Shown here: piece by piece, positions 1-58,402 of the stretch | Layout: every line of letters starts with the position of its first letter | Position numbering within the stretch: the stretch's first letter is position 1 | Assembly (NCBI GenBank): GCA_964643435.1 | Contig: CAZXPY010000001.1 | Coordinates: 74,802 to 138,801, forward strand | DNA: 64,000 nt | Direction: 5' to 3' | DNA from: an uncultured Gammaproteobacteria bacterium | GTDB lineage: Bacteria; Patescibacteriota; Microgenomatia; Woykebacterales; RBG-16-39-9b | Notes under the pieces: generated by a model | What the model saw: only the letters and a program-made list of their open reading frames with translations | Told to the model about the DNA's origin: nothing | Database searches by the model: none | Program-made: the position numbers and the translations under genes

Positions 1-1
1 T

Positions 2-1369
2 GGTTTAGAAGTAATTTCGTTTCTTGCGAAGAGAGGAATAAAAATAAACACCACGGTTATGATGAGCAGCGCCCAAGCAATTTTAGCCGCCAAAGCAGGA
101 TCTAACTATGTTAGTCTTTTTTTCCGAAGGATTTTGGACGGTGGTGGCGATCCAAGCAAGGAAATTAGAGAAACAAGGGCATTTTTAGATGCTGCAAAAT
201 TGAAAACGCAGATTATCTCTGGAAGTATTAGGGACGCTAGTGACGTTGTTGCTTCTTTCAGTGCTGGTGCTCATATTGTCACAATTCCTTACAAAGTATT
301 AATACAGTTGCCTTACCATAAAAAATCCGAGGAAACAATTAAAGAGTTTGATGAGAGTTGGCATAAATTCACGAAGTCCCCGGAAGTTATTACAGTTAGA
401 GTACCTCTGAGAATTACTTTAGGAGGCGGCGGTACGGATTTGCCATTTTATGCTTCCAAACATTCCGGGTTTTTAATTTCGGCGGCTATCGATAAATATA
501 TTCACGTTTCAATTAATCGCAGTTACACTGGCGCAAACGTTGTCAGGTATGAAGAAGAAATTGAGGCTGCCAAAAATAAAGAGGATTTAAACCACGCGAT
601 TGTTAGGGAAGCGCTGAAGCATTTTAAGGTTGCTGACCCAGTTAGTATTACGATAACTGCTGCTTTTCCAGCGGGGACCGGTATGGGTTCTTCAAGTGCA
701 GTGGTAGTTGGTTTGATTAAAGGTTTAAGTGAATTTACCGGCACTTATAATAATATCAATAAACAAAAAATTGCCGAGTTAGCGGCTCACATCGAGAGAG
801 ATATTTTAAAGGAAGAAGGGGGTAAACAAGACCAGTATATTACCGCTTACGGTGGGATTCAGGAAATGATTTTTGGTCAGGATGGTTCGGTCCAGATCCA
901 GGAAATACAATTAAGTGATGAAAACAAACTTAGACTGGAGAATAATTTGGTACTTTTCTTCTTAGGAACAGCTAGAAGTTCTAGTGAAATTCAAAAAAAG
1001 GTTGCTGCTGCAGAAAATCTAGAAGAAAAAATTGAAAGTTTAAATTTTATAAAGGAATTGGGGTTTAGAGTCAGAAAAGCACTGCTAGGAGGAAATATTG
1101 ATGACATTGGTTTAACTTGGGATCTGCATTGGAAGGCGAAAAAGAAACTGGCAAGCTCTATTACCAATAAACAAGTCGATAATTTTTATAGACTTGCTAA
1201 AGGGAATGGAAGCTTGGGAGGTAAAATTGTTGGTGCTGGTGGGGGAGGGTTTTTAATTTTTTACACAAGGGAAAGAAACAGGTTAATTAGACGTTTAGAA
1301 AAGGAGGGACTAAAATATATCCCGTTTCGCTTTTCTACGAGCGGGGTTTCAATAATTCATGAAGACTGA
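2..1369 (+). CDS. In-frame fusion: fructose-6-phosphate aldolase/transaldolase (5' end truncated by window edge) + GHMP sugar kinase (D-glycero-D-manno-heptose 7-phosphate kinase, HddA-like)
   Basis: Frame 2 is open from nt 2. Residues up to about nt 361 align with the FSA/TalC C-terminal half (GxxYVSxF..R.D, ..IPYKVL.QL, ..F..DW). The downstream part has the GHMP N-terminal motif RVPLRITLGGGGTDLP and the ATP-binding motif PAGTGMGSSSAVVVG. There is no stop or ATG between the two domains. Confidence 0.65.
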   Translation, partial: GLEVISFLAKRGIKINTTVMMSSAQAILAAKAGSNYVSLFFRRILDGGGDPSKEIRETRAFLDAAKLKTQIISGSIRDASDVVASFSAGAHIVTIPYKVLIQLPYHKKSEETIKEFDESWHKFTKSPEVITVRVPLRITLGGGGTDLPFYASKHSGFLISAAIDKYIHVSINRSYTGANVVRYEEEIEAAKNKEDLNHAIVREALKHFKVADPVSITITAAFPAGTGMGSSSAVVVGLIKGLSEFTGTYNNINKQKIAELAAHIERDILKEEGGKQDQYITAYGGIQEMIFGQDGSVQIQEIQLSDENKLRLENNLVLFFLGTARSSSEIQKKVAAAENLEEKIESLNFIKELGFRVRKALLGGNIDDIGLTWDLHWKAKKKLASSITNKQVDNFYRLAKGNGSLGGKIVGAGGGGFLIFYTRERNRLIRRLEKEGLKYIPFRFSTSGVSIIHED

Positions 1370-1991
1370 CAAAAAGAATTCGCAAATTGATTTTGGAAGT
1401 TATTTATCCAGTTATTTATTAGAAACGATTCGTGTTAGTAAGAACATTGATAAAGTGGCTGTTGGTAAAATTTTAGACGCCCTTTTTAAAGCTTGGAGGG
1501 AAGAAAAAAACGTTTTCCTAGCTGGGAATGGTGGTAGTGCCACAATTGCCATGCATTTTACCACTGACCTTGGGAAGGGTACCTATTCCGATGGAAAACC
1601 AAGGTTACATACCTTTTGCCTTTCCGAAAATCCTGATCTTATTTCCGCTTTGGTAAACGACAATGGTTGGGATAATCTTTATATCGATCAACTAAGAGGT
1701 CTTATAAAAAAGGGTGATGTATTTATTGCTTTTAGTGTCCATGGTGGTGCTGGTGAGGACAAGGCCGGTATGTGGTCACAAAACTTGTTGAGGGCAATGG
1801 ATTATGCCAAAAAAATTGGCGCGGCTACCGTTGGTTTTAGTGGTTTTGACGGTGGGCCAATGAAAGACCTAGCCGATATTTGTTTAGTGGTTCCAGCTAA
1901 AAATACAGGCCATGTTCAAGATTTTCACTTTGCAATCATGCACGTGGTTTCTGATTTATTGGGTAAAAAAATCGCCTCTTTTAAGAGATGA
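1359..1991 (+). CDS. gmhA: Phosphoheptose (sedoheptulose-7-phosphate) isomerase, SIS domain
   Basis: SIS-domain motifs (FLAGNGGSATIAMHFTTDL, VFIAFSVHGG); about 210 aa; overlaps the upstream kinase by 11 nt; sits in a heptose context. Confidence 0.75.
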   Translation: MKTDKKNSQIDFGSYLSSYLLETIRVSKNIDKVAVGKILDALFKAWREEKNVFLAGNGGSATIAMHFTTDLGKGTYSDGKPRLHTFCLSENPDLISALVNDNGWDNLYIDQLRGLIKKGDVFIAFSVHGGAGEDKAGMWSQNLLRAMDYAKKIGAATVGFSGFDGGPMKDLADICLVVPAKNTGHVQDFHFAIMHVVSDLLGKKIASFKR

Positions 1992-2701
1992 TTGCGGTAA
2001 TTTTTGCTGGTGGTTTAGGTATCAGACTTCGACCCCTAACCCAAGTAACTCCAAAACCACTAATCCCTATTAAAAATAAACCCTTTTTGTGGTACCAGAT
2101 AAAATTGCTTTCTTCTTTTGGCGTAAAAAAATTTATTATTCTAACCGGTTATTTATCGAATCTGATCGAAGATTATTTTGAAGACGGTACAAAATTAGGA
2201 GTTGAGATTATTTATTCAAGAGAAAATTCCCCCCTCGGTACTGGCAGAGCGTTAAAATTGGCCTCACCCTTAATAAAAGAAAATTTCCTCCTTTTAAACG
2301 GAGACGATATTCCCATAATCGACTACGCTCTTTTTTTTGCAATTGTTAAAAGTGGTCAATTCCCGAATATAATAACCGTTCATAAAGGGGGAAAAAGAGG
2401 AAATTTAAAAGTTGATAAAAGAACTGGTTACGTGCTCTTCTATTCAAAGGTGAGAAACGAGAGTTTTAATTATGTCCACAGCGGTTTGTCGTTTTTTAAT
2501 AAAGATGTTCTAGATCTTTTACCAAAGGGTAGATATGATGTTGAGGAAGAATTATTTAATAAACTAGCTAAAAAGAAAAAATTAGTCTATTTTGAAGCTT
2601 TGGGTAGAACTTTATCTATCGGTACCTACCCACGCTTACGTCGAAGCCGTTTCTTGCTAGAACGCTTCATTATTAGTTATATTGATAATAAAGAAATTTA
2701 A
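1988..2701 (+). CDS. Sugar-1-phosphate nucleotidyltransferase (D-glycero-alpha-D-manno-heptose 1-phosphate guanylyltransferase, HddC-like)
   Basis: N-terminus MIAVIFAGGLGIRLRPLT..KPLIPI matches the NDP-sugar pyrophosphorylase signature GGxGTRL; 4-nt ATGA overlap with gmhA. Confidence 0.65.
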   Translation: MIAVIFAGGLGIRLRPLTQVTPKPLIPIKNKPFLWYQIKLLSSFGVKKFIILTGYLSNLIEDYFEDGTKLGVEIIYSRENSPLGTGRALKLASPLIKENFLLLNGDDIPIIDYALFFAIVKSGQFPNIITVHKGGKRGNLKVDKRTGYVLFYSKVRNESFNYVHSGLSFFNKDVLDLLPKGRYDVEEELFNKLAKKKKLVYFEALGRTLSIGTYPRLRRSRFLLERFIISYIDNKEI

Positions 2702-3414
2702 TGACTAAAATTGCAGTTGTTTTACCTACTTATAATGAAAAAGAGAATATCCAAAAAATTATTCCCCAAATTCTTTCCCAAAATAAAGATATATCAATAA
2801 TCGCCGTTGATGACAATAGTCCAGACGGTACGGGAAAAATACTGGATAACCTAGGTAAAAAATATAATGGTAGGGTGAAAACCCTGCATCGAAATAAAAG
2901 GGGAGTTGGTAGCGCAGTTAGGGATGGCCTAAAAGAAGCGTTAAGATTAAAGGCAGATTACGTAGTTCAGATGGATGCCGATTTTTCTCATCATCCAAAT
3001 TATCTCCCCTCTCTAATTAAGGGAATAAATAATGGGGTTGATGTTACGATTGGGTCTCGGTATGCAAAAGGAGGGGACATTATGAGTAGAAGTACCTTGC
3101 GTAATTTTATTTCAATGGCGGCAAATTTTTACAACCGTAGTTTACTTGGAGTTTGGGAAGTAAAAGATAGTGCTGGTGGTTTTAAATGCTCAAAGAGAGC
3201 TGTTTTGGAAGCAATAAATTTAGATACTTTTTTATCGAATGGCTATAGTATTGGGATCGAGCAGCTTTATCGAATTCACAGAAAAGGATTCAAAATGAAG
3301 GAAGTGCCGATTATTTTTAACGATCGAAATGCGGGTAATTCTAAAATGGATCTAAGGGAAATTTTAAAATATATAATTACTGTTTTAAGAATAAAGTTTA
3401 GTGGTTTTAAATGA
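2701..3414 (+). CDS. GT2 family polyprenyl-phosphate hexose synthase (Dpm1/GtrB/ArnC-like)
   Basis: VVLPTYNEKENI.., VDDNSPDGT, DxD-type motif QMDADFSHHP, about 237 aa with no transmembrane tail; typical Dpm1-like architecture. Confidence 0.75.
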   Translation: MTKIAVVLPTYNEKENIQKIIPQILSQNKDISIIAVDDNSPDGTGKILDNLGKKYNGRVKTLHRNKRGVGSAVRDGLKEALRLKADYVVQMDADFSHHPNYLPSLIKGINNGVDVTIGSRYAKGGDIMSRSTLRNFISMAANFYNRSLLGVWEVKDSAGGFKCSKRAVLEAINLDTFLSNGYSIGIEQLYRIHRKGFKMKEVPIIFNDRNAGNSKMDLREILKYIITVLRIKFSGFK

Positions 3415-4061
3415 ACGCAATTCCTAATTATGTAAAAATTAAAGGAACTTTTTACGATGAACTGACTGATCCAAAAAAAGTTGGGATATTTAGATCTTGG
3501 TTGCATAATGCCCGCTACGAAAGGCTAAGAGAGAGCGTAAAAAAATATTACAAAAAAGGCGACGTGGTTTTGGATTTAGCTTGTGGCGGTTGTAATTGGA
3601 ACAGGGATAAAATTCCGGTTGTCGGCGTCGATATTAACGAAAACTTGCTAAACTTCGGGCTAAAAAACGGTCGCTTAAGCAGAAAAATTGTCGCCGATAT
3701 TTACCGGATTCCTTTAAAAAGTAACTTTGCGGATATTGTAATAATGAGTGAAATTTTAGAACACGTTTCTGAAATAGATAAAGTATTAGCTGAAAGCAAG
3801 AGAATCTTAAAGGTAGACGGAAAATTAATTACGAGCGTTCCTTACGATTCTTTCCCCAGTCCTCATCTGGCGCTTTTCACGGTCCACTGCCTTATTAAAG
3901 GCTATATTTTTGGAGATCCTTATTATAAGAAATTTTGCGGTCATATTAATCGCTTTTCAATGAGGAAAATACGTTCTATTTTAGCCAATCATTTTAAAAT
4001 AATCGAACAATTCCCCGAGCATATGCTCCATATTTTTACCATTGCTGAAAAAATTACTTAA
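3411..4061 (+). CDS. Class I SAM-dependent methyltransferase
   Basis: SAM motif I VLDLACGGCNW; acidic loop after beta-2; about 216 aa. Confidence 0.65.
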   Translation: MNAIPNYVKIKGTFYDELTDPKKVGIFRSWLHNARYERLRESVKKYYKKGDVVLDLACGGCNWNRDKIPVVGVDINENLLNFGLKNGRLSRKIVADIYRIPLKSNFADIVIMSEILEHVSEIDKVLAESKRILKVDGKLITSVPYDSFPSPHLALFTVHCLIKGYIFGDPYYKKFCGHINRFSMRKIRSILANHFKIIEQFPEHMLHIFTIAEKIT

Positions 4062-4878
4062 AATTCTCCTCCAACTTTTCTTTATCTGACTGGGTTAATT
4101 GCCAACCAACACTATCAGTAATCTCATCTATATGGGCTTTCGTGCTTGCCTTTGGAATTACAATTACTGGGAGTTTTTCGAGTAACCAGCGCAGCGCAAT
4201 TTGGGCAGGCGTTTTATTATATTTACTAGCTATTTTATCCAATATTGGAAAAAGACCTTTTTGGGTTAATCTACCGCTTGCTAGAGGTGTGTAAGCGGTC
4301 AGAATAATTTTTTCTTTTTCGCAATAAGTAAGAAGCTCTTTTTCCGGGTCGCGGTGAAGAAGACTATATTCAACTTGATTTGTGACAATTTTATTCTTAG
4401 TATAACTTTGGGCATTAGAGAGCTGACGGGCCGAAAAATTAGAAACGCCAATAAAACGGATTAAACCTTGGGAGACTAAAGTATCAAAAGCCGCCATTGC
4501 ATTTTTCATTGAAGCAAAAGGGTTGTACCAATGAATTAAATAAAGATCAATAAATTTTAAGTTTAATCTTTTTAAGCTGTTTCCACAAGATCTAAGAATC
4601 CCCTCGTAACTAAGATGGTGGGGGGATACTTTGGTGGTAATAAAAATTTTTTTTCGATCAAAAAGTTTAACAGCTTCTCCAACTAACTCTTCTGAATGCC
4701 CTGCCCCGTAGATTTCGGCGGTATCAATATGAGTAATTCCCAGGCTAATGGCGTATTGAATAGCCTTAATATAATCTTCGTCACGTGAACGATTGGTATT
4801 TAAAGAGCCGCCCATCCTCCAGGTTCCTAAACCCAGAACCGGTATTTTAATATTACCCGTTAATACTTTAAATTCCAC
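4054..4878 (-). CDS. Aldo/keto reductase family oxidoreductase
   Basis: GLGTWRMGG and IDTAEIYG motifs; (alpha/beta)8 AKR length of 274 aa; convergent with the methyltransferase (8-nt overlap). Confidence 0.8.
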   Translation of the reverse strand: MEFKVLTGNIKIPVLGLGTWRMGGSLNTNRSRDEDYIKAIQYAISLGITHIDTAEIYGAGHSEELVGEAVKLFDRKKIFITTKVSPHHLSYEGILRSCGNSLKRLNLKFIDLYLIHWYNPFASMKNAMAAFDTLVSQGLIRFIGVSNFSARQLSNAQSYTKNKIVTNQVEYSLLHRDPEKELLTYCEKEKIILTAYTPLASGRLTQKGLFPILDKIASKYNKTPAQIALRWLLEKLPVIVIPKASTKAHIDEITDSVGWQLTQSDKEKLEENFK

Positions 4879-5572: not shown

Positions 5573-5871
5573 TGGATTCGAACGCAACACCAACAGCTCC
5601 AGTAATGGAGCCAAAGAAAGATAAAAAAACTGTCTACACTGTAATTAGTGCTGTGGTAGTGTTACTGGTTCTTGTAATTGCAATCTGGTACGCTTCGGCA
5701 ACTAAACAACCTACGTATCAGCAACCTACCTATCAACCACCAACTACAGTAGATAACAGCCTTAAAAATGATTCAGATTTAACCTCAGCCGAAAAGAGTT
5801 TAGACTCATCAGACATTGATGGTCTAGGGACAGAATTAGACCAAAATGACGCTGACGCCTCTCAATTCTAA
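5572..5871 (+). CDS. Small single-pass membrane protein with tandem QQPTY / Pro-Thr-rich repeats
   Basis: One TM helix (VYTVISAVVVLLVLVIAIWYA), then QPTYQQPTYQPPTT repeats and an acidic tail; 1-nt overlap (TAATG) with the upstream gene. Confidence 0.4.
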   Translation: MDSNATPTAPVMEPKKDKKTVYTVISAVVVLLVLVIAIWYASATKQPTYQQPTYQPPTTVDNSLKNDSDLTSAEKSLDSSDIDGLGTELDQNDADASQF

Positions 5872-5961
5872 ATCCTAAGAAAAGTAATAACCCTTTCTAG
5901 CGATCAGAGCCACGATTTTTTCCTCGAAAAACGCTCATTAGTTTGTTAGAATTTAATCTGT

Positions 5962-6585
5962 ATGACGTGGAGAGGCTTATCTAAAGATTTTTTCGTTTGT
6001 ACTGCTTCGGGACTTTTTATAGGGGCAGTTGTTTTTGATATCTTTCCAGAAGTCTCAGACGAATTGGGTCAAACAAAAGCCTTCGTTTTTATCTTAATTG
6101 GTTTATTAATTTGGCATCTTTTAAAACTTTTCACTGATTATTTATCTAAAAATAGTTTGGCTATCGTTTCTGTCTTGGCTTTTTGGTTTCACTCTTTTTT
6201 GGAAGGAGCGGTGACTGCCTTAAGTTTCTCCTTTAGTATTGGAACGGGATTGGCGGTGGCAACAGGGATGATACTTCACCTTGTGCCTGAATTCTTTGCG
6301 ATTGTTGCCTTAATGCAAGGAGAAGGGGTTTCCCTCAAAAAGTCTGTTTTAGTAGATTTTGGCGGGATAATTACCCTATTAATAAGTTTTACAATTGTGT
6401 ATTTTCTTTTAAAGGAAATAAATGAGAGTGTTCTAGGTATTTTAATAGCAGTGAGTGGTGGGGCTTTTCTGTACATCGGGGTTGTTTCCTTTCTAAAGCG
6501 GGCCAAAAATTCTTGGAATATTTGGGGTCTCTTAACCGGGCTGTTAATAATCGGAATTTGGAATATCTTTTTCAGAGGTGTATAA
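5962..6585 (+). CDS. ZIP-family (ZupT-like) divalent metal transporter
   Basis: Polytopic membrane protein; motifs FHSFLEGAV and LHLVPEFFAI resemble the ZIP HNFPEG / HNIPEG signatures. Confidence 0.5.
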   Translation: MTWRGLSKDFFVCTASGLFIGAVVFDIFPEVSDELGQTKAFVFILIGLLIWHLLKLFTDYLSKNSLAIVSVLAFWFHSFLEGAVTALSFSFSIGTGLAVATGMILHLVPEFFAIVALMQGEGVSLKKSVLVDFGGIITLLISFTIVYFLLKEINESVLGILIAVSGGAFLYIGVVSFLKRAKNSWNIWGLLTGLLIIGIWNIFFRGV

Positions 6586-6640: not shown

Positions 6641-9310
6641 CTATCCTTTATGTTGGGGAGAGTTGATTAGACCACATTTTTTCCACTTGAGGCCGCTGCC
6701 GCAGGGGCAAGGGTCGTTGCGACCAATTTTTTGTTTACTGGAGAACGTTGGGTTCCCACTCGAAGGAGCGTTTATTGGTTTTGCCTCTTGAGACTGGGGT
6801 TGAACGGAAACTTTAAATATCCTTCTTGTTACTTCAAAATCAATTGAGTCAATAAGATTTTCAAATAATTTAAAAGCCTCCGCTTTATACTCAACCAGAG
6901 GATCTCTTTGACCATAGCCTCGCAGCCCAATTCCTTCCCGCAAGTCATCAATATCATCAAGATGATTCATCCATAAAGCGTCAATTGTTGATAAAAGAAC
7001 CAACTTTTCTATTTGCCGGCTGGCCTCGGCTCCAAGCTGTTTTTCTCTGGCTTCGTATAAATCAACGACAATTTTATTTAAAAGTTCAATTATTTTGTTT
7101 TGGTCTTTTAATTGGGAAATTTCAGTCTTTATTTGGTCTCGGCTTGCTTCATCAAAAGGAATAATTGTGGAAAATTCTTGAGCGATTTTTTCATAATTTA
7201 CTACACCGTCAGCTTGGTTTATGTAAACAATTGTTTCAATTTCCTCACGTAGCTTCTCGTAAATACTTTCCTTCAGCGAAAAAGTTTCCTGATCAGCCCC
7301 TTGATCTAAATTTTTTTCCTCTCCATCCGCAGTTTGTTGCCTAGATTTACCCTCTAGAATTTCTCTTCTCATCCCATAAATTATCTCTCGCTGTTTATTC
7401 ATTACGTCATCATATTCAACTAAGTGTTTGCGGATGTCAAAGTTATGACCCTCAACTTTATTTTGAGCATTTTCAATTGCTTTTGAAACAAGAGCATTTT
7501 CAATTGGTATATCTTCAGGAATCTTAAGAGCCGTCATCAGATTAGCCACGGTTTCTCCGCCAAAAAGGCGCATAATGTCGTCTTGCAAAGAAACGTAAAA
7601 TCTTGAAGAACCAGGATCCCCTTGCCGACCGCTTCGTCCTCGGAGCTGATTATCAATTCTTCTTGCCTCATGCCTCTCGGTTCCAGTAATGTGCAAACCT
7701 CCAACAGCGACCACCCCATCACCTAGTTTAATATCAACTCCACGGCCGGCAATATTGGTAGCTAACGTTACCGAGCCTTTTTGGCCCGCCTTGGCAATTA
7801 TTTGGGCCTCTCGTTCGTGGTTTTTGGCATTTAAAATTTCATGAGTTATGCCTTTTCTCTTGAGAAGTTCTCCTAGAAGTTCGTTTTTTTCAATTGAAGT
7901 GGTTCCGATAAGAAGCGGCTGACCTTTTTTATTAAGGGTCTCAATTTCCTTAACGATTGCCTCGTATTTTGCCCTCTCAGTTTTATAGACGCTGTCAGGA
8001 TAATCTTTTCTAATCATTGGTTTGTTTGTAGGAACAGCAATTACTTCTAGCTTATATATCTTGTGAAATTCTTCCGCTTCAGTAGCCGCAGTTCCAGTCA
8101 TACCCGCTAATCTTTTGTAGAGTCTGAAATAGTTTTGGAAAGAAATTGTCGCTAGTGTCCGTGTTTCTTGCTGAATTTTTACTCCTTCTTTTGCCTCTAT
8201 CGCCTGGTGTAAGCCTTCACTATAGCGTCGCCCAAACATTAATCTTCCGGTGAACTCATCAACAATAATTACTTCGCTATTCTTTACAACGTAATCCCGG
8301 TCTTTTTTAAATAAGGTTTTTGCTTTCAGCGCTTCTTCAATATGATGAATAGTTTGAAAATCTTTTTCATACAAATTATCAACACCAAGCGCTCTTTCCA
8401 CTTTACTTATCCCAATTTCGGTTAAAGCGGCAGTTTTGAGTTTCTCATCAATAACGTAATCAACCTCATTATTTAGAGTCTCAACAAGTTTTGAAAATGT
8501 ATAATATTTTTCAGTGGGTTCTTGATCTGGGGCACTAATGATTAGTGGCGTTCTTGCCTCGTCAATAAGAATAGAATCAACCTCGTCAACAATCGCAAAA
8601 TGCAAATTTCTCTGAACCACTTGAGTCAAATCCCAGACCATATTGTCTCGTAGATAATCAAAACCATATTCGTTATTGGTGCCATAAGTAATATCAGCTC
8701 CGTACGCTTCGCGTCTTGCAACTTCCCTTAAAAACTTACCAACACCGAGCCCTTCCTCTTCTGGAGTCAATTCTGATTTATTTTCAGTTTCTAGTGGGGG
8801 TTTATTTTCTGGACTAGGGTCAAAAAGATACGATTTTTCGTGATTGATCACACCAACCGAAAGTCCTAAAAAATGATAAATAGGACCCATCCATTCAGCG
8901 TCGCGCCGCGCAAGGTAATCGTTTACAGTTACAAGGTGAACACCATCACCGCTTAGAGCGTTAAGGTAAAGAGGGAGAGTAGCAACGAGGGTTTTTCCTT
9001 CACCGGTTTTCATTTCGGCGATTTTTCCTTGGTGCAAGACAATTCCACCACCAATTTGAACGTCAAAATGCCGTTGCCCAATCGTTCTTAAAGATACTTC
9101 TCTTACCGTAGCAAAAGCTTCTGGAAGGAGGGTATCTAATGATTCACCTTTTTCTAACCTTTTTTTAAACTCAATAGTTTTCTCTTTTAGTTTTTCACGA
9201 GGAAGCTTTTTTATATCCTTTTCAAAATCGTTAGTTTGATCTATTAAAGGTTGAATCTTGTCTAATTCGCGTTCGTTTGAGTCGATTAGTTTTCCTAGAA
9301 ATTTAAACAT
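6641..9310 (-). CDS. secA: Preprotein translocase ATPase SecA
   Basis: 889 aa; DEAD-like motor motifs (GEGKTLVATLP, IVDEVDSILIDEARTPLIIS, TNIAGRGVDIKLG); C-terminal zinc finger CPCGSGLKWKKCG. Confidence 0.95.
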   Translation of the reverse strand: MFKFLGKLIDSNERELDKIQPLIDQTNDFEKDIKKLPREKLKEKTIEFKKRLEKGESLDTLLPEAFATVREVSLRTIGQRHFDVQIGGGIVLHQGKIAEMKTGEGKTLVATLPLYLNALSGDGVHLVTVNDYLARRDAEWMGPIYHFLGLSVGVINHEKSYLFDPSPENKPPLETENKSELTPEEEGLGVGKFLREVARREAYGADITYGTNNEYGFDYLRDNMVWDLTQVVQRNLHFAIVDEVDSILIDEARTPLIISAPDQEPTEKYYTFSKLVETLNNEVDYVIDEKLKTAALTEIGISKVERALGVDNLYEKDFQTIHHIEEALKAKTLFKKDRDYVVKNSEVIIVDEFTGRLMFGRRYSEGLHQAIEAKEGVKIQQETRTLATISFQNYFRLYKRLAGMTGTAATEAEEFHKIYKLEVIAVPTNKPMIRKDYPDSVYKTERAKYEAIVKEIETLNKKGQPLLIGTTSIEKNELLGELLKRKGITHEILNAKNHEREAQIIAKAGQKGSVTLATNIAGRGVDIKLGDGVVAVGGLHITGTERHEARRIDNQLRGRSGRQGDPGSSRFYVSLQDDIMRLFGGETVANLMTALKIPEDIPIENALVSKAIENAQNKVEGHNFDIRKHLVEYDDVMNKQREIIYGMRREILEGKSRQQTADGEEKNLDQGADQETFSLKESIYEKLREEIETIVYINQADGVVNYEKIAQEFSTIIPFDEASRDQIKTEISQLKDQNKIIELLNKIVVDLYEAREKQLGAEASRQIEKLVLLSTIDALWMNHLDDIDDLREGIGLRGYGQRDPLVEYKAEAFKLFENLIDSIDFEVTRRIFKVSVQPQSQEAKPINAPSSGNPTFSSKQKIGRNDPCPCGSGLKWKKCGLINSPQHKG

Positions 9311-9520: not shown

Positions 9521-10633
9521 GTGAAAATAGTCGTTATTATCCCCACGTACAACGAGAGAGAGAATATTGGTCCCTTAATTGATGCCCTTGAAGAAGAATT
9601 CGCTAAAATACCCCATGATTGCCATATCTTAGTAGTTGATGACAATTCTCCAGATAAAACCGCCCAAGTTGTAAAAGAAAAAATGGCCCAGTACGATGGA
9701 ATTTATCTCCTTACTGGTGCCAAAGCGGGTTTAGGTGCCGCTTATATCAGGGGAATGAAGTTTGCCAACGATAAACTCAAGGCGGACGCGGTTATGGAGA
9801 TGGATGCTGATTTTTCCCATAAACCTTCCGATGTCCCGAGATTAATTAAAGAACTGGACGAAGGTTACGATTTTGTTATTGGTTCGCGGCATATAAAGGG
9901 AGGCAGTATTCCCGCTGATTGGTCTTTGCTGCGTAAGCTAAACACAAAGGTAGCTAATTTGGTTGCCAGATATTTAGCCGGACTCTACCGGGTTAAAGAT
10001 TGTACCGCTGGATTTCGAGCGATTAATACGGCTCTTTTGCGAAAAATTGATCTAGATAATATCCGTACGAAAGGCTACTCCTTCCAAATCGGGATTTTAC
10101 ACGAGGCCATAAATGCAGGGGCGGTGATAAAAGAAGTGCCAGTTGATTTTATTGATCGAAAGAAAGGAGAAACAAAACTAGGATTTAATGTAAAAGAGCG
10201 GGTTCTTTTTATTTGGGACAGTATCTTAATTCGGTTTGAAAAAAGTGAAACTTTCTTTAAATTTGCCACGGTTGGTGCCACTGGAGTAGCGGTAAATTTA
10301 GGTTCACTTTTTATCCTTTACGAAAACTTTGGGATAATAAAAGAAATAGCATCGCCAATTGCAATTGAATTTTCAATAATTACGAATTTCCTTTTTAATA
10401 ATTCTTGGACCTTTAGTGAGCGAAAGGCAAGCTCACCTTTTTTAATAAAACTTATCAAGTTTAATATAGTTTCCTTGCTAGCTCTAATAGTTACTTACAC
10501 TACTTTTTTGATTACAACTCGCGTCTTTGGTGTATACTATCTAGTTGCTCAAAGTTTAGGAATTGTTTTGGCAATGCTTTGGAATTATTTTGTTAATTCA
10601 ATCTGGACCTGGAAAATAATAAAAGAAGGATAA
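9521..10633 (+). CDS. Fusion protein: GT2 polyprenyl-phosphate hexose synthase (Dpm1/GtrB-like) + C-terminal GtrA-like flippase domain
   Basis: GTG start. N-terminus IIPTYNERENI, VDDNSPDKT, MDADFSH. The C-terminal ~130 aa (from about nt 10240) are four hydrophobic helices typical of the GtrA family (..VGATGVAVNLGSLFILYE.. ..NNSWTF..). Confidence 0.7.
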   Translation: MKIVVIIPTYNERENIGPLIDALEEEFAKIPHDCHILVVDDNSPDKTAQVVKEKMAQYDGIYLLTGAKAGLGAAYIRGMKFANDKLKADAVMEMDADFSHKPSDVPRLIKELDEGYDFVIGSRHIKGGSIPADWSLLRKLNTKVANLVARYLAGLYRVKDCTAGFRAINTALLRKIDLDNIRTKGYSFQIGILHEAINAGAVIKEVPVDFIDRKKGETKLGFNVKERVLFIWDSILIRFEKSETFFKFATVGATGVAVNLGSLFILYENFGIIKEIASPIAIEFSIITNFLFNNSWTFSERKASSPFLIKLIKFNIVSLLALIVTYTTFLITTRVFGVYYLVAQSLGIVLAMLWNYFVNSIWTWKIIKEG

Positions 10634-36797: not shown

Positions 36798-37929
36798 GCA
36801 AAAGAATCTGAGAATAGCAATTGTCGCCGATGTCATTAACGAACATTCCGGCGCCAGGGCACCTATCAGGTTAGCAACTTTTCTGAATAAAGAAAGTGCG
36901 GATATCACTTTTTTTGCTAGCAGCCACTTACTAGATTTAAATTTAAAAGAGGAGCTTCAAAAGAAGGGAATAAAAGTTTTTGTTTTGCCTTCAAGTAGAA
37001 TTCCTTTTTTGGGGCGTTTCTTTGGCGCCCTTAAACTATTCTTATATTTGAAAGAGGGGGATTTTGACATAATTTCGCTACAAAGTAGCTCATTATTATA
37101 TGCAATTATTAGGTTAACCGGCGTCCGAATTGTAAAAACCTATTACGGAACTCAATTAGATTTGGGTTTAAATATGAGAGATGGAATAATTAGCTTAATT
37201 CCGTCTTGGATTTTAAAATTTGTAATAATCCTAAGAGAAAAGTTGTTTTTTTTAATCTCTAACAAAGTTATCGCTATAAGTAAATATTTAGTAACTGAAG
37301 CCAAACAAATATATAATAAAAATATAGAATACGTTTACTTAGGGGTTGATCTGTTCAAAGTGGCTGAAGTAGCAGAAAATAAGAATAATAAAAAAATCAT
37401 TTGTTTGTCGGTAAGTAGAATAGTACCGTATAAAGGGTTCCACTTTCTTATAAAGGCTTTTTTGACTGTGAATAAGAAAGTACCCGATTTAAGACTTTAT
37501 ATAGTTGGTACCGCACCGTTTCCAAAGTATTTGTCTTTCTTAGATAAAATCAAAAATGAAAATGTAAAAATCTTATTGGACGTTGGTGACGAGCACTTAG
37601 GAAGTTTATACAAAAGTTGTGATATCTACGCTACTTTTGATCAATGGGTTCCTTGGAGTTTAGCTCCACTGGAGGCTAGCCTTTATTCAAAACCTCTGGT
37701 TGGTATAAAAGCCGGAGCAATGGGAGAAATAATAACTCATAATAAAAACGGGCTTTTGGCCAGCAATTTGGACGAATTTACTGATTATCTTTATAAACTC
37801 TCTACCGAAAAGAAATTAAGAGAACGTTTAGGGAAAGAAGCAAAAAGGTTAGCCGAAAAATTTTCTTGGAAAAGAACGGCGCAAGAGTATTTGGAAGTTT
37901 TTAGGGGGGTTCTTGAAAAGAATAATTAG
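36790..37929 (+). CDS. GT4 family glycosyltransferase
   Basis: GT-B fold; ..PWSLAPLEASLYSKPLVG... Confidence 0.65.
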   Translation: MIKQKNLRIAIVADVINEHSGARAPIRLATFLNKESADITFFASSHLLDLNLKEELQKKGIKVFVLPSSRIPFLGRFFGALKLFLYLKEGDFDIISLQSSSLLYAIIRLTGVRIVKTYYGTQLDLGLNMRDGIISLIPSWILKFVIILREKLFFLISNKVIAISKYLVTEAKQIYNKNIEYVYLGVDLFKVAEVAENKNNKKIICLSVSRIVPYKGFHFLIKAFLTVNKKVPDLRLYIVGTAPFPKYLSFLDKIKNENVKILLDVGDEHLGSLYKSCDIYATFDQWVPWSLAPLEASLYSKPLVGIKAGAMGEIITHNKNGLLASNLDEFTDYLYKLSTEKKLRERLGKEAKRLAEKFSWKRTAQEYLEVFRGVLEKNN

Positions 37930-40033
37930 TTTTTTTAAGAAATTTTACCAAGAAATTTTAATTATTTTATTTTTCCTAATTGTCGCGATTATCTATACCT
38001 ATCCTCTCTTTTTCAGATTAAATGAAGTTGTTTGGGGCTACGTAGGGGATAATTTTGGGGCTATTTGGTATGTTTGGTGGTTAAAGTATTCAAGTCTAAA
38101 AGGGTTGCCTTCTGATTTTACAAATCTTGTAAATTTTCCGTTTGGTCTAAAAATCGATGCTTCTTCAAATATTGAACCAATCTGGCAGCTTTTCTTACAG
38201 TACTTTGGCTTTCTCCTTGGAGAGATATTTACCTTTAATTTTCTAATTTTCTTAAGTTTCCCGCTTTCCGCAATAACAATGTACGCACTTATTCATTATT
38301 TAACAAAAGATAAATTGGCGGCTACTTTAGTTGCGATAGTTTATATGCTTTTGCCTTATCATTTCTGGCAAAGCTATCAACACGTCGCTCTTTCTCAGAT
38401 TCAATGGTTACCACTTTATGTTTTGGCACTTTTGAAACTAGATTCTAACCCCAATTTTCGAAATTCTCTTTTTGCCGCCGTAAGTTTTCTGCTTGTTGCC
38501 CTCTCTTCTGTCTATCATGGTTATTTTATGGTTCTTTTTACAATAAGTTTTGTTATTTTCAAAATTTTGTATAAACTTCTTACCGAAAGAAAAAATTATC
38601 TTAACTTCAATAGGCTAAAATATTTTAGTTTGACACTCATTTTTATAATTTTGGTAATTTCTCCCTTCGCATATAAATTTTATCAAACAAGATCAGTTAC
38701 TTCTTTAGGTGCTACCGAAGCCTATAAAAGACCAATCGAAAATTTATTAGGTCTCTCAGCACGACCGTGGGATTTTTTTATTCCGCCAAGCGACCACCCA
38801 TTCTTCGGTAAATATGAACATGGTCTCTACGCAAAAATTCGTACCTTTAGTAATGATTACAAAACAATTAGTGCTTTTTTGCCCGAGCGGATTATGTACG
38901 TCGGAATTCCAGCGTTTCTTCTAGCTTTAGTGGGAATTTATTTTTCTCTAAAAGGTAGACGCAAAGAACTAATTATAGTTTTGCTCGGGGTTAGTGCATT
39001 TTTAGCCGCCACTGCAGCCCCTCCGTTTGTTATTATTAAAGGTAAGACAATATATCTTCCTTCTTATTTTTTTTACCAGGTCCTACCAATAATTAGGGTT
39101 TACGCTCGTTTAGGGATTGTACTTGATCTTTTGATTTTACTTTTCGCCGGATTTGGCTTTAGTTTTTTGTTCTCTAAAATTAAGAATAAGATACTTTTAT
39201 TTGGGTCTTTTTGTTTGTTAATAGCTTTATTTCTCTTTGAGTTTGCTAATTTTCTTCAACCTAAAATTTCTGATATTAGTAAGATTCCAGAAACGTACGA
39301 ATGGTTAAAAGGGCAAAGAGGTTTAGTAAATATTATTGAATACCCAAGGACGTTTAATGTAGCCGCTAGTCTACTTTATCAAAGATATCACGAAAAGGGG
39401 ATTTTTAACCTCTCCGGAAGCTTTGCTAGCACTTCTCCTTATACCCCGCTTTGGGATATAATTGAAAACCCAACAAGTTCTGATACTGCTAAAGTTCTTT
39501 CTGCCTTGGGTTTAGATTATGCTTTGATTCACGTTAAGACTCCTTACAATATGTTGAATCCTTTTGACGAAATAGGATTGAGCCAAATAGTCGAAGAGGG
39601 TAGATGGATCCCTTTGCGTGGTAATGGAATTTCCGGTTTTGAACTTGCTTCGTCTTTTGATGATGGGTTTTTCGTGAAAATAACCGCCAATCCTGATAAA
39701 CTAATAATTTTTGAAGAAGAAAGTGTAAGATTCTTACCAAATAGTAGAGATTGGTTATGGAAAGATTCTCGCAATACCCTCTATTTCTTAAATATAAAAA
39801 AACAACCAATATTTATTAATTTAAAATTTGATTATTTTGGTTTTGAAAGAGAGAATCTTAAATCAGTATTTAGATATAAAGAAGACATGATTCAAAAAGA
39901 AATCGAATTAAAAAGTCTTGAAGGGCCTTTAAAAATTAATCAGGGTATAAGTTCTTTAAGATTTGAAATCAATGATATGGGGACTGAATTCGGTGTAAGA
40001 AATATATCTGTTTCTGAATTTAAAGCTAAGTAA
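37913..40033 (+). CDS. Large polytopic membrane protein, GT-C-like putative glycosyltransferase (paralog of 47364..49175)
   Basis: 706 aa with more than 12 TM helices and a C-terminal soluble domain. Its N-terminal motif YPLFFRLNEVVWGYVGDNFGAIWYVWWLKYS parallels FPLIFKFTTNIPGVDEDSPTHVWYLWWFKFS in the minus-strand paralog. Confidence 0.4.
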   Translation: MKRIISFFKKFYQEILIILFFLIVAIIYTYPLFFRLNEVVWGYVGDNFGAIWYVWWLKYSSLKGLPSDFTNLVNFPFGLKIDASSNIEPIWQLFLQYFGFLLGEIFTFNFLIFLSFPLSAITMYALIHYLTKDKLAATLVAIVYMLLPYHFWQSYQHVALSQIQWLPLYVLALLKLDSNPNFRNSLFAAVSFLLVALSSVYHGYFMVLFTISFVIFKILYKLLTERKNYLNFNRLKYFSLTLIFIILVISPFAYKFYQTRSVTSLGATEAYKRPIENLLGLSARPWDFFIPPSDHPFFGKYEHGLYAKIRTFSNDYKTISAFLPERIMYVGIPAFLLALVGIYFSLKGRRKELIIVLLGVSAFLAATAAPPFVIIKGKTIYLPSYFFYQVLPIIRVYARLGIVLDLLILLFAGFGFSFLFSKIKNKILLFGSFCLLIALFLFEFANFLQPKISDISKIPETYEWLKGQRGLVNIIEYPRTFNVAASLLYQRYHEKGIFNLSGSFASTSPYTPLWDIIENPTSSDTAKVLSALGLDYALIHVKTPYNMLNPFDEIGLSQIVEEGRWIPLRGNGISGFELASSFDDGFFVKITANPDKLIIFEEESVRFLPNSRDWLWKDSRNTLYFLNIKKQPIFINLKFDYFGFERENLKSVFRYKEDMIQKEIELKSLEGPLKINQGISSLRFEINDMGTEFGVRNISVSEFKAK

Positions 40034-57084: not shown

Positions 57085-57783
57085 GGCAAATAAAAGCATA
57101 TCTTTGATAGAAGCAAAAACTAGCTTAAAATTAAGCTGACTTGGGTTTTCTTTAGGGTAATGAACAACCGGAACGCTAGCGATTTTAGAACCGGCCCTAC
57201 TTGCTTTAATAAGTCTTTCGCTTTCAGCAAAAACGCTTGTAGATTTAATATCTAAACTTTTGTAAATATGAGATTTTACTAGTTTTGCACAGCCAGCATC
57301 ATGAACCTCAACACCAAACAGTAGTTTTGTAAAGAAATTAAATCCCCAAGACACAAATTTCCGCCCTAAATTGTATTTTTTTACTTTCCTTTTCGCAACA
57401 ACAATATCAAAACCCTCTTGCATTTCTTTCATTAAAGAGGGAAGAATTGACATCTTAATCTCATTATCAGCACCATTAAAAAAAGTCAGATTTCCTTTAG
57501 CCCCAGAATAAAGATCTTTTAAACTTTCTTCAATTCCAAAGTTTTTAATATGGTTAATAATTCTTAGTTTTGGATATTTCTCTCTTAATTTTGATAAAAT
57601 TTGCGGTGTTTTATCGGTGCTGCCGTCATCTACCACTAAAATCTCATAATTGTTAGTTAGTTTTGATGCTTCTTCGTCAGCACTTCTAATAGATTCACTT
57701 ATGTTTTCTTCTTCGTTATAAGCTGGAATTGCGATGGTTAAAGATAAATTTTTCTTCATAAAATTTGCTAAAATCGGAGACAC
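57073..57783 (-). CDS. GT2 polyprenyl-phosphate hexose synthase (Dpm1-like)
   Basis: LTIAIPAYNEEENIS, VDDGSTDKT. The true start may be the internal Met (MKKNLS..), which would reduce the overlap with the HAD gene. Confidence 0.7.
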   Translation of the reverse strand: MSPILANFMKKNLSLTIAIPAYNEEENISESIRSADEEASKLTNNYEILVVDDGSTDKTPQILSKLREKYPKLRIINHIKNFGIEESLKDLYSGAKGNLTFFNGADNEIKMSILPSLMKEMQEGFDIVVAKRKVKKYNLGRKFVSWGFNFFTKLLFGVEVHDAGCAKLVKSHIYKSLDIKSTSVFAESERLIKASRAGSKIASVPVVHYPKENPSQLNFKLVFASIKDMLLFALRS

Positions 57784-58402
57784 TTTCTAAAACAAGATCA
57801 GCACCAGCCGCAGTTAATTCTTTTTTATTTCCTACCCCCGTTAATACCCCTATTGTAAAAGCACCGGCACTTTTACCAGCTTTTATATCATAAGGGTGGT
57901 CTCCAATAACGATTATTTCTGAAGGTTTCAGATTTAATTTATTAATTGCAAATATTATTCCCTCAGAACTGGGTTTGGGGTTTAAAACTGTTTCCCGTCC
58001 TACTAATACATCAAAGGGTTCTAAATTGAATTTATCTAGAGTCGTTTTTATTGCCATTTCAGAAGTTCGAGAAAATATACCTGTCATAATATTTTTACTT
58101 CGTAAATACTCTAGAGTTTGTTTAGTTCCAGGAATAAGAGTAGCCTCTTGAGAGGCTAGACATTCTTCTTCTGTAAGTATTTTAAGCGCCGCTTTCTTTA
58201 AATCTTCGTTTTCAGCTAGGCTCTTTCTCTCAAGCGCAACTATTGCGTCGTTTATTTTTTGTAAAATTGGTTTAAAATTAAAGTCCTTGGGCAATCCTCT
58301 TTCAGCGAAAAACGCCCTCACCCTTTCTCTAATTGATTCAAGGTCAATTCGTATTCTTACTAAAGTGTTTTCAAAATCAAACAAAATTAGTTTGACCGAC
58401 AT
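57716..58402 (-). CDS. HAD-superfamily phosphatase (phosphoglycolate phosphatase / beta-PGM-like subfamily)
   Basis: Motif I LILFDFENTLV; motif IV IVIGDHPYDIKAGKSAGA. Confidence 0.7.
   Translation of the reverse strand: MSVKLILFDFENTLVRIRIDLESIRERVRAFFAERGLPKDFNFKPILQKINDAIVALERKSLAENEDLKKAALKILTEEECLASQEATLIPGTKQTLEYLRSKNIMTGIFSRTSEMAIKTTLDKFNLEPFDVLVGRETVLNPKPSSEGIIFAINKLNLKPSEIIVIGDHPYDIKAGKSAGAFTIGVLTGVGNKKELTAAGADLVLESVSDFSKFYEEKFIFNHRNSSL

Follow-up and report, generated by a model that had tools for sequence, protein, structure and literature searches.

Within the 64,000-nucleotide stretch of contig CAZXPY010000001.1 analyzed here (positions 74,802 to 138,801; "the window" below), the first gene joins a short transaldolase in frame to a sugar-phosphate kinase of the HddA type. 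This transaldolase-kinase (tal-hddA) fusion is genuine and both of its halves are under selection; it is also rare, and all carriers are Woykebacteria-like members of the Candidate Phyla Radiation (CPR). Gene fusions rank among the strongest signs, available from sequence alone, that two enzymes act in one pathway, and here the fusion ties a transaldolase to a kinase of the nucleotide-heptose type. It also led to a transaldolase subfamily, apparently distinct, which sits in a sugar-nucleotide gene module across many archaeal and bacterial phyla. The interpretation toward which we lean, with modest confidence, is a bifunctional transaldolase-HddA-type kinase that serves a nucleotide-heptose operon through sedoheptulose-7-phosphate.

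Extent and domain structure of the fusion gene

As the preliminary description of this DNA had stated, an open frame runs from nt 2 to 1369 and closes with a TGA at 1367-1369. It begins at nt 2 because the window edge cuts the gene: the whole product, recovered by cluster look-up, is P0510 (548 aa), identical to the window frame at 455/455 residues, and the gene start lies 278 nt to the left of window nt 1, the window holding the 3' 83% (codons 94-548). The parts of the gene are as follows.

1..1369, + strand: tal-hddA fusion gene, 3' 83% (open frame; P0510 455/455; locus L050 covers window nt 1-3332 with 100% identity and has the gene start at its nt 10001)
2..367, + strand: predicted transaldolase domain, C-terminal 122 residues, TTNQ subfamily (TAL_FSA; fsa_talC_mipB; catalytic columns)
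368..385, + strand: linker F-T-K-S-P-E, from the last transaldolase helix to the first kinase strand (profile boundaries; structure model; junction substitutions)
386..388, + strand: GTT (Val) codon at the place of the kinase's ancestral ATG (codon alignment of the window, L001-L004 and the separate-gene loci L006, L007, and L013)
386..1369, + strand: predicted HddA/WcbL-type GHMP sugar-phosphate kinase domain and stop (GHMP_kinases_N/C; NF049969; solved relatives)

In Pfam searches the open frame matched TAL_FSA (PF00923) over residues 1-118 (77 bits against a cutoff of 27, E = 1.6e-21), GHMP_kinases_N (PF00288) over residues 201-285 (61 bits, above cutoff), and GHMP_kinases_C (PF08544) over residues 381-435 (23 bits, above cutoff). 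The NCBIfam profile for fructose-6-phosphate aldolase (FSA)/TalC (fsa_talC_mipB) covers its positions 90-211 of 213 and ends at residue 122, while the NCBIfam HddA profile begins, at its position 2 of 338, at residue 129; since both run to completion at the junction, the two domains are complete there with about six residues between them. The F-D-E-S-W motif of the aldolase occupies nt 347-361 and RVPLRITLGGGGTD comes after it, in agreement with the earlier view that the aldolase is complete to a conserved ..F..DW near nt 361 and is followed by an HddA-type N-terminus. The linker, previously put at 11 residues, shortens to about 5-6 by the profile boundaries and by an AlphaFold2 model of the relative P0001 (92% identical). 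In that model, built from a 79-sequence alignment (mean predicted local distance difference test score [pLDDT] 91.6, predicted template modeling score 0.64), the final aldolase helix spans residues 200-217, the linker residues 218-222 with pLDDT of ~70, and the first kinase strand starts at 223. The model indicates two well-folded domains and leaves their mutual orientation undefined.

The kinase motifs are intact in the translation, with P-A-G-T-G-M-G-S-S-S as motif II (PxGxGxGSS) and G-A-G-G-G-G as motif III (GAGGGG). The best solved relatives of this half are the heptose-7-phosphate kinases 4n3o, 3k85, and 4usk/4usm (E 1e-42 to 1e-39), followed by fucokinases (1e-15). By these matches the kinase appears HddA-like (HddA/WcbL-type), short of a confirmed equivalog.

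Authenticity of the junction and expression as one protein

The preliminary description had raised the possibility of a stop codon missed at the junction, to be checked against reads. Logan assemblies of four sequencing runs (SRR12113420, -430, -383, and -384) carry the P0510 gene and are 100% identical to the window across 1.9-3.3 kb, junction included, and the NCBI contig has the same junction. Every member of the P0001 cluster has WHKFTKSPEVITVRVPLRI. At locus L001, from a Rifle aquifer metagenome and 90% identical to the window in nucleotides, the junction peptide is the same, and the 31 junction codons differ from those of the window by eight synonymous and zero nonsynonymous changes; the ratio of nonsynonymous to synonymous substitution rates (dN/dS, Nei-Gojobori) between the two is 0.08 in the aldolase part and 0.13 in the kinase part. 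A second fusion lineage (P0002, P0003, and P0004; loci L002-L005 and the GenBank contig L014 of a metagenome-assembled genome [MAG]), 51-54% identical, likewise has the frame uninterrupted, its linker being nine residues longer. Each lineage has its own linker motif, LPYSFGP in the long-linker lineage and KSPEV in the window lineage, and only synonymous change is seen in either. Assemblies from ENA, JGI, Logan, and NCBI, which cover two divergent lineages, thus show the architecture. A missing stop or a frameshift introduced by sequencing or assembly is ruled out by the four identical assemblies and the NCBI contig, by the fused state of divergent lineages, and by the synonymous-only pattern at the junction; we give such an artefact practically no weight.

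It is very improbable, in our judgment, that the kinase is also, or only, made separately from an internal start, which would make the fusion partly an effect of annotation. Such a start has two arguments in its favor: in the long-linker lineage P0002-4 the ancestral start codon of the kinase is still an in-frame ATG, and in the lincomycin cluster the fused gene lmbN keeps an active internal translation start (PMC4351081). However, the internal ATG of L002-L004 is not preceded by a clear Shine-Dalgarno sequence, and in the window the corresponding codon is GTT. As had been noted before, no in-frame ATG, GTG, or TTG occurs at the window's junction (nt 341-440), that is, within ~50 nt; the only near-cognates there are ATT at 389, CTG at 407, and ATT at 413, none with a convincing Shine-Dalgarno sequence before it. 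With no stop codon in between, ribosomes initiating at the transaldolase ATG have to continue into the kinase, and the linker codons are under in-frame purifying selection. These observations support the absence of an independent kinase start in the window lineage and the translation of the in-frame fusion as one predicted protein.

The aldolase half belongs to a TTNQ transaldolase subfamily

The aldolase half of P0001 matches the short transaldolases of Thermotoga maritima, Bacillus subtilis, and Thermoplasma acidophilum end to end (E 1e-41 to 1e-47, best 9e-47), and fructose-6-phosphate aldolases only at E ~1e-15. When 124 family members were aligned with three solved short transaldolases, residues D6, T27, N28, E60, K86, N108, T110, S130, F132, R135, S167, and R169 (T. 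acidophilum numbering) were found to be invariant in all 124, fusions included. The window itself carries N109/T111, S131-L-F-F-R-R136, and S168/R170 (P0510 numbering); the Schiff-base Lys85 of P0510, together with Glu58 and Asp6, is encoded upstream of window nt 1 and is present in P0510. The label "F6P-aldolase", earlier offered as an alternative, does not hold, for the enzyme has the transaldolase-type Glu60 and Phe132 in all 124 members and not the aldolase-type Gln59 and Tyr131; the Glu/Phe pair and the ranking of scores rule out an FSA identity. An inactive scaffold domain is likewise ruled out by the invariant catalytic set and the dN/dS of 0.08. The half is best explained as an active class I (Schiff-base) transaldolase, judging from its conserved residues.

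Compared with the short decameric transaldolases of known structure (T. maritima 1vpx, B. subtilis 3r8r, and T. acidophilum 3s0c), the family shares the fold, length, Schiff-base set, and the Glu and Phe, but differs in having TTNQ in place of TTNP (124/124 members, including the 120 closest stand-alone relatives), S-L/I-F-F/Y-N/R-R in place of SPFVGR, the changes A166G and H173D, and a one-residue Gly insertion, and its genes are embedded in a module rather than free-standing. With FSA (1l6w) it shares fold and length, but has Glu for Gln and Phe for Tyr. No solved structure of the TTNQ subfamily was found, the best PDB match being ~45% identical. The full-length TTNQ transaldolase of Candidatus Acidoferrum scores 182 against the cutoff of 246 of the NCBIfam model TIGR00875. 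On these signatures and scores we regard the TTNQ transaldolases as a distinct subfamily and not as canonical equivalogs. For annotators, TTNQ together with S-L/I-F-F/Y-N/R-R provides a signature that tells these enzymes from the transaldolases of the pentose-phosphate pathway, which matters because metabolic reconstructions of CPR bacteria and archaea now take any transaldolase as evidence of that pathway.

A five-gene module across bacteria and archaea

The TTNQ transaldolase stands beside the same neighbors, a GHMP kinase, an SIS isomerase, an HAD phosphatase, and an NTP-transferase, in a 660-kb contig, Candidatus Acidoferrum, and another CPR contig. A scan of one genome per species gave 36 loci, 34 of them true members of the TTNQ family; they were retrieved with two very specific peptide patterns that did not reach Streptomyces, and the range of the family is therefore larger than the subset from which the following counts of association are taken. 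Kinase, isomerase, and phosphatase genes are all present (tblastn) in 26/34 true family loci, most of which also have the NTP-transferase, and where the 8-kb flanks are complete, 15/16 loci have kinase, SIS, and HAD genes beside the transaldolase, usually arranged as kinase, isomerase, phosphatase, transaldolase, nucleotidyltransferase. From the 15/16 and 26/34 co-occurrences it therefore follows that the TTNQ transaldolase is a dedicated component of a sugar-nucleotide module. The deposited labels of the MAGs with these loci include Bathyarchaeota, Hadarchaeota, Thermoplasmatales, Methanomethyliaceae, Nitrososphaeria, Chloroflexi, Acidoferrum, Zixibacteria, Thermotogaceae, Sedimentisphaerales, and others, and the module ranges over CPR bacteria, Chloroflexi, Acidobacteriota, Zixibacteria, Thermotogae, Bathyarchaeia, Hadarchaeota, Thermoplasmatales, and Nitrososphaeria.

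The preliminary description had seen in the fusion a physical coupling of central carbon metabolism to nucleotide-heptose synthesis. A real fusion does head an operon with gmhA-like and hddC-like genes; its transaldolase, however, is not the generic one of central metabolism but of a subfamily nearly always found in the module. No literature was found on the TTNQ module in CPR bacteria or archaea, or outside the lincomycin octose pathway.

Two loci of the scan differ from the rest. In L026 (a Nitrososphaeria MAG, 61-kb contig), which is fully flanked, kinase, isomerase, phosphatase, and nucleotidyltransferase genes are all missing within 8 kb; this exception might show what the TTNQ enzyme does alone. 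In L031 (a Methanobacteriota MAG) the TTNQ-type transaldolase at 5583-6248 is followed, ~1.7 kb downstream and next to a nucleotidyltransferase, by a second, partial copy at 7985-8359.

Distribution and origin of the fusion

A profile of the fusion protein was compared with 1.84 billion representative proteins, and both of its halves were matched by a single 50%-identity cluster; every other match covers the kinase part alone or the aldolase part alone. The search for the same domain architecture in relatives, proposed in the preliminary description, thus did find it, confined to that one cluster. A wide occurrence of the fusion in other phyla is ruled out by this result and by the closest stand-alone transaldolases, of which 0/120 are fused. 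The SecA encoded in the window is ~69% identical to proteins of Candidatus Woykebacteria, placing this groundwater-type bacterium in the Patescibacteria/CPR. The MAG labels given here are those deposited, and that of L014 (CAYGGA010000005.1, "uncultured Gammaproteobacteria bacterium"), which carries a P0004-type fusion, is probably wrong, the genome probably being CPR. On plasmids of cultured bacteria only canonical fsa/tal genes were found, at identities of ≤42%.

The nearest stand-alone kinases, 47-57% identical, have a separate transaldolase gene directly upstream in the same operon (L006, L007, and L013), whose gene content is transaldolase, kinase, SIS isomerase, NTP-transferase, glycosyltransferase of family 2 (GT2), methyltransferase, and HAD phosphatase. 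In L007 the transaldolase and kinase genes abut as TAA ATG with zero spacer. Stand-alone transaldolases end in a charged C-terminal tail that corresponds to the fusion linker, and the ancestral ATG of the kinase persists as an internal Met in the long-linker lineage and has become GTT at nt 386-388 in the window lineage. By all indications of the alignment, the fusion is derived from a separate, abutting gene pair; loss of the stop and start codons between the neighboring operon genes tal and hddA in Woykebacteria-like CPR would have produced it. It presumably arose in CPR because there alone the transaldolase lies directly upstream of the kinase.

In the neighbor-joining tree of the kinase domain, the long-linker fusions P0002-4 group with a separate-gene clade at 100% bootstrap and the window lineage falls outside. 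Since the two fusion lineages are not sisters in this tree, the fused state would provisionally require two or more events (two fusions, or one fusion followed by a fission); the trees are bootstrapped neighbor-joining trees with long branches, the aldolase tree is unresolved, and the count of events is accordingly provisional. A single origin of the fusion finds no support in the same kinase tree, subject to the same long-branch caveat.

HddA-type kinases are fused to other partners elsewhere, namely HddC-HddA (P0368), HddA-GmhA (P0283, P0331, P0354, and P0385), and HddA-GT2 (P0312), so fusion among pathway partners is recurrent; like Tal-HddA these join the kinase to pathway partners, but none has a transaldolase, which is the new element among such fusions. 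Further architectures of this kinase type include HddA-GmhA-GAF, a fusion of HddA to a GFO/IDH oxidoreductase, and one copy with an intein bearing a LAGLIDADG endonuclease (the set includes P0314 and P0293). The statement that no Tal-HddA fusion had been described agrees with our literature search, which found no such fusion, no transaldolase in gmhA/gmhB clusters, and nothing relevant on heptose in CPR; the sequences sit unnamed in public metagenome databases. What we report is a pathway-enzyme fusion in nucleotide-sugar synthesis, in a pairing for which we found no earlier description in the searchable literature.

The operon headed by the fusion

Four conserved genes follow the fusion on the same strand.

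1359..1991, + strand: GmhA-like SIS ketose-phosphate isomerase (SIS_2; TIGR00441 gmhA 92 bits, cutoff 209; next to the kinase in all related loci)
1988..2701, + strand: HddC-like sugar-1-phosphate nucleotidyltransferase (NTP_transferase 1e-22; NF049965 94 bits, cutoff 300)
2701..3414, + strand: GT2 glycosyltransferase, conserved in the operon (Glycos_transf_2 8e-29; same place in L001, L002, L004, L006, L007, and L013)
3411..4061, + strand: S-adenosylmethionine-dependent methyltransferase, last conserved operon gene of the window lineage (Methyltransf_11 7e-14; after the GT2 in L001, L002, L004, L007, and L013)

The first two had earlier been called gmhA and hddC-like; the genes are where they were placed and of the types named, but both remain below their equivalog cutoffs. 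The HddC-like protein scores similarly against GlmU, ManC, and MurU models. The GT2 is probably a polyprenyl-phosphate sugar synthase. The start of the GmhA-like gene overlaps the fusion stop by 11 nt, and the overlaps through the operon (1359/1369, 1988/1991, 2701, and 3411/3414) suggest that its genes may be translationally coupled.

In relatives (L002, L004, L007, L013, and L014) the operon ends with a gene for a GmhB-type HAD-IIIA phosphatase, which is missing from the operon in the window/L001 lineage; an aldo-keto reductase (4054-4878, - strand) stands after the operon where the relatives have it. A single HAD protein is encoded in the window, of the generic cap type and ~55 kb away (57716-58402, - strand). 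No second transaldolase was found in the 64-kb window.

The same contig also encodes, 6-7 kb before window nt 1, a transketolase split in two (a Transketolase_N gene and a Transket_pyr/C gene, L050 2493-4228), placed among glycan genes between an SDR (short-chain dehydrogenase/reductase) epimerase and a GT2/YfhO pair. It could be a housekeeping enzyme or a source of erythrose-4-phosphate or sedoheptulose-7-phosphate for the operon.

Proposed function and competing explanations

In nucleotide-heptose synthesis a ketose 7-phosphate is isomerized to the aldose 7-phosphate, a kinase acting at C1 gives the 1,7-bisphosphate, a phosphatase leaves the aldose 1-phosphate, and a nucleotidyltransferase activates it. 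In the function proposed here, the transaldolase half would most likely make sedoheptulose-7-phosphate from fructose-6-phosphate and erythrose-4-phosphate, as the entry to the pathway, with erythrose-4-phosphate possibly provided by the split transketolase. The separate GmhA-like enzyme would convert sedoheptulose-7-phosphate to the aldose 7-phosphate, the kinase half would put a phosphate on C1 after this isomerization, and an HAD-IIIA phosphatase (operon-encoded in relatives, not found in the window) would take off the distal phosphate. The nucleotidyltransferase would then activate the sugar for a GT2 or GT-C route of surface glycosylation. That the activated sugar passes first to a lipid carrier and from there to an acceptor at the surface is suggested by the GT2 and methyltransferase conserved in the operon, by PMT_2/ALGX genes located upstream in relatives, and by the glycan island of the window. 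As the operon has no enzyme that scores above the NCBIfam equivalog cutoff for a canonical GDP-heptose enzyme, the sugar, C7 or C8, and the nucleotide are ones that we infer.

The closest known system is the GDP-D-glycero-alpha-D-manno-heptose pathway (GmhA, HddA/WcbL, GmhB, and HddC) of S-layer and capsule clusters, which has the same four folds in the same logical order; the kinase half best matches HddA/WcbL, the isomerase GmhA, and the phosphatase of the relatives GmhB. Of this set the window has isomerase, kinase, and nucleotidyltransferase, and a GmhB-type gene, not found in these 64 kb, stands in the operons of relatives. Unlike that pathway, the module has an integral and sometimes fused transaldolase, and all its proteins score well below the cutoffs. 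As the protein joins step 1 of the pathway to step 3, the benefit of the fusion is likelier to be a fixed 1:1 expression and co-assembly than channeling. HldE of the ADP-heptose pathway (heptose-7-phosphate kinase/heptose-1-phosphate adenylyltransferase) likewise fuses nonconsecutive steps (2 and 4) and is a precedent for the selection of such fusions without direct channeling; unlike Tal-HddA it combines a ribokinase-like kinase with a cytidylyltransferase-like domain, acts on the other anomer with another nucleotide, and has no aldolase domain. Short transaldolases are decamers, and by analogy a transaldolase decamer displaying ten kinase domains is plausible. If the heptose reading is true, the fusion shows a way in which CPR bacteria with reduced genomes direct hexose phosphate into the heptose glycans of their surface.

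Several points weigh against the proposed function. The scores of the window proteins are far below the NCBIfam cutoffs, with 173 bits of 600 for the kinase half (NF049969, HddA), 92 of 209 for the isomerase (GmhA), and 94 of 300 for the nucleotidyltransferase (HddC), and the module enzymes of Acidoferrum also miss theirs (161/600 for HddA, 107/209, 141/178, 182/246 for TIGR00875, and 52/300). A GmhB-type HAD-IIIA phosphatase was not found in the 64-kb window. The substitutions P29Q, P131L/I, V133F/Y, G134N/R, A166G, and H173D are invariant or nearly so beside catalytic and phosphate-binding residues, and by this position they could reflect a change of acceptor. Channeling is a weak rationale, since the fused steps do not directly follow each other, and bacteria expected to run an ordinary pentose-phosphate pathway have no obvious need of a further enzyme for sedoheptulose-7-phosphate.

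These points leave room for a pathway to an eight-carbon sugar, which we consider possible though doubtful: an LmbR-like enzyme would move a three-carbon unit from fructose-6-phosphate or sedoheptulose-7-phosphate onto ribose-5-phosphate to make octulose-8-phosphate for a surface glycan. In lincomycin and celesticetin biosynthesis, LmbR moves such a unit onto ribose-5-phosphate, LmbN isomerizes the octulose-8-phosphate, LmbP is predicted to phosphorylate and LmbK dephosphorylates, and LmbO forms the GDP-octose (PMC4351081, PMC5854111, PMC12945683). Among characterized systems, LmbR/N/P/K/O is the only one we found in which a transaldolase works together with these four types of enzyme (PMC4351081 table 2; PMC5854111). 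With it and its Ccb homologs the TTNQ module shares all five, of which the window itself has 4/5, and LmbN too is fused, with a retained internal start; but the Lmb genes form an actinomycete antibiotic cluster and not a CPR or archaeal surface-glycan operon, and their transaldolase and kinase are separate proteins. An octose is further favored by the retention of the same five-gene set around the TTNQ transaldolase in archaea and bacteria, by the subfamily-specific substitutions flanking the catalytic and phosphate-binding residues, by the failure of every module enzyme, even in Acidoferrum, to reach canonical heptose cutoffs, and by the presence of the module in Chloroflexi, Acidoferrum, Thermotogaceae, and Zixibacteria, lineages in which sedoheptulose-7-phosphate should already exist. 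The resemblance, however, is one of gene content, LmbR and CcbR having been compared by description, and none of the 120 stand-alone proteins nearest to the aldolase half is named LmbR. For the kinase, isomerase, and phosphatase, the top matches among profiles and structures are heptose enzymes, though the same would probably hold for Lmb proteins; dedicated copies of primary-metabolism enzymes are common in glycan clusters, and the nearby split transketolase fits a plain supply of sedoheptulose-7-phosphate equally well. In a broader and similarly tentative form, the fusion might be a Rosetta-stone marker of a widespread five-enzyme module (TTNQ transaldolase, SIS isomerase, GHMP kinase, HAD-IIIA phosphatase, and nucleotidyltransferase) that builds a nonstandard ketose phosphate, for example octulose-8-phosphate. 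Nucleotide-activated eight-carbon or other higher-carbon sugars would then be common in the surface glycans of uncultivated bacteria and archaea, beyond the lincosamides. A housekeeping accident, in which the aldolase half is the organism's only transaldolase of the pentose-phosphate pathway and the fusion a tolerated loss of a stop codon in a compact genome, strikes us as improbable. CPR genomes are indeed compact with overlapping genes, as in this operon, the fusion is rare (one 50% cluster among the 1.84 billion representatives), close relatives manage with separate genes, and the 64-kb window yielded no other transaldolase. Yet two lineages, not sisters by the kinase tree (100% bootstrap), are fused and have stayed so down to 51-54% identity, the linker itself is conserved in LPYSFGP and KSPEV, with synonymous change only, and the TTNQ subfamily is almost never apart from kinase, isomerase, and phosphatase genes (15/16), unlike a free housekeeping gene.

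Surrounding genes

One large cell-envelope glycan island (9521-36797) dominates the window. Its genes include GT2-GtrA, five of the SDR/GDP-mannose-dehydratase type and an RmlD-like reductase, CofD, GlmS, UDP-glucose dehydrogenase, YfhO, PMT_2, UDP-GlcNAc 2-epimerase, a Wzx-type flippase, three GT4s (glycosyltransferases of family 4), and a DegT aminotransferase. A 706-aa open reading frame of the island (37913-40033, + strand) has no Pfam match at E ≤ 1e-5, and an Rfam scan of the window gave zero matches. Two relatives have toxin-antitoxin pairs (PhdYeFM/PIN, PemK/MazE, and HicA/HicB) within a few kb on the downstream side of the operon, at 18482-20922 in L001 and at 16760-17917 in L002.

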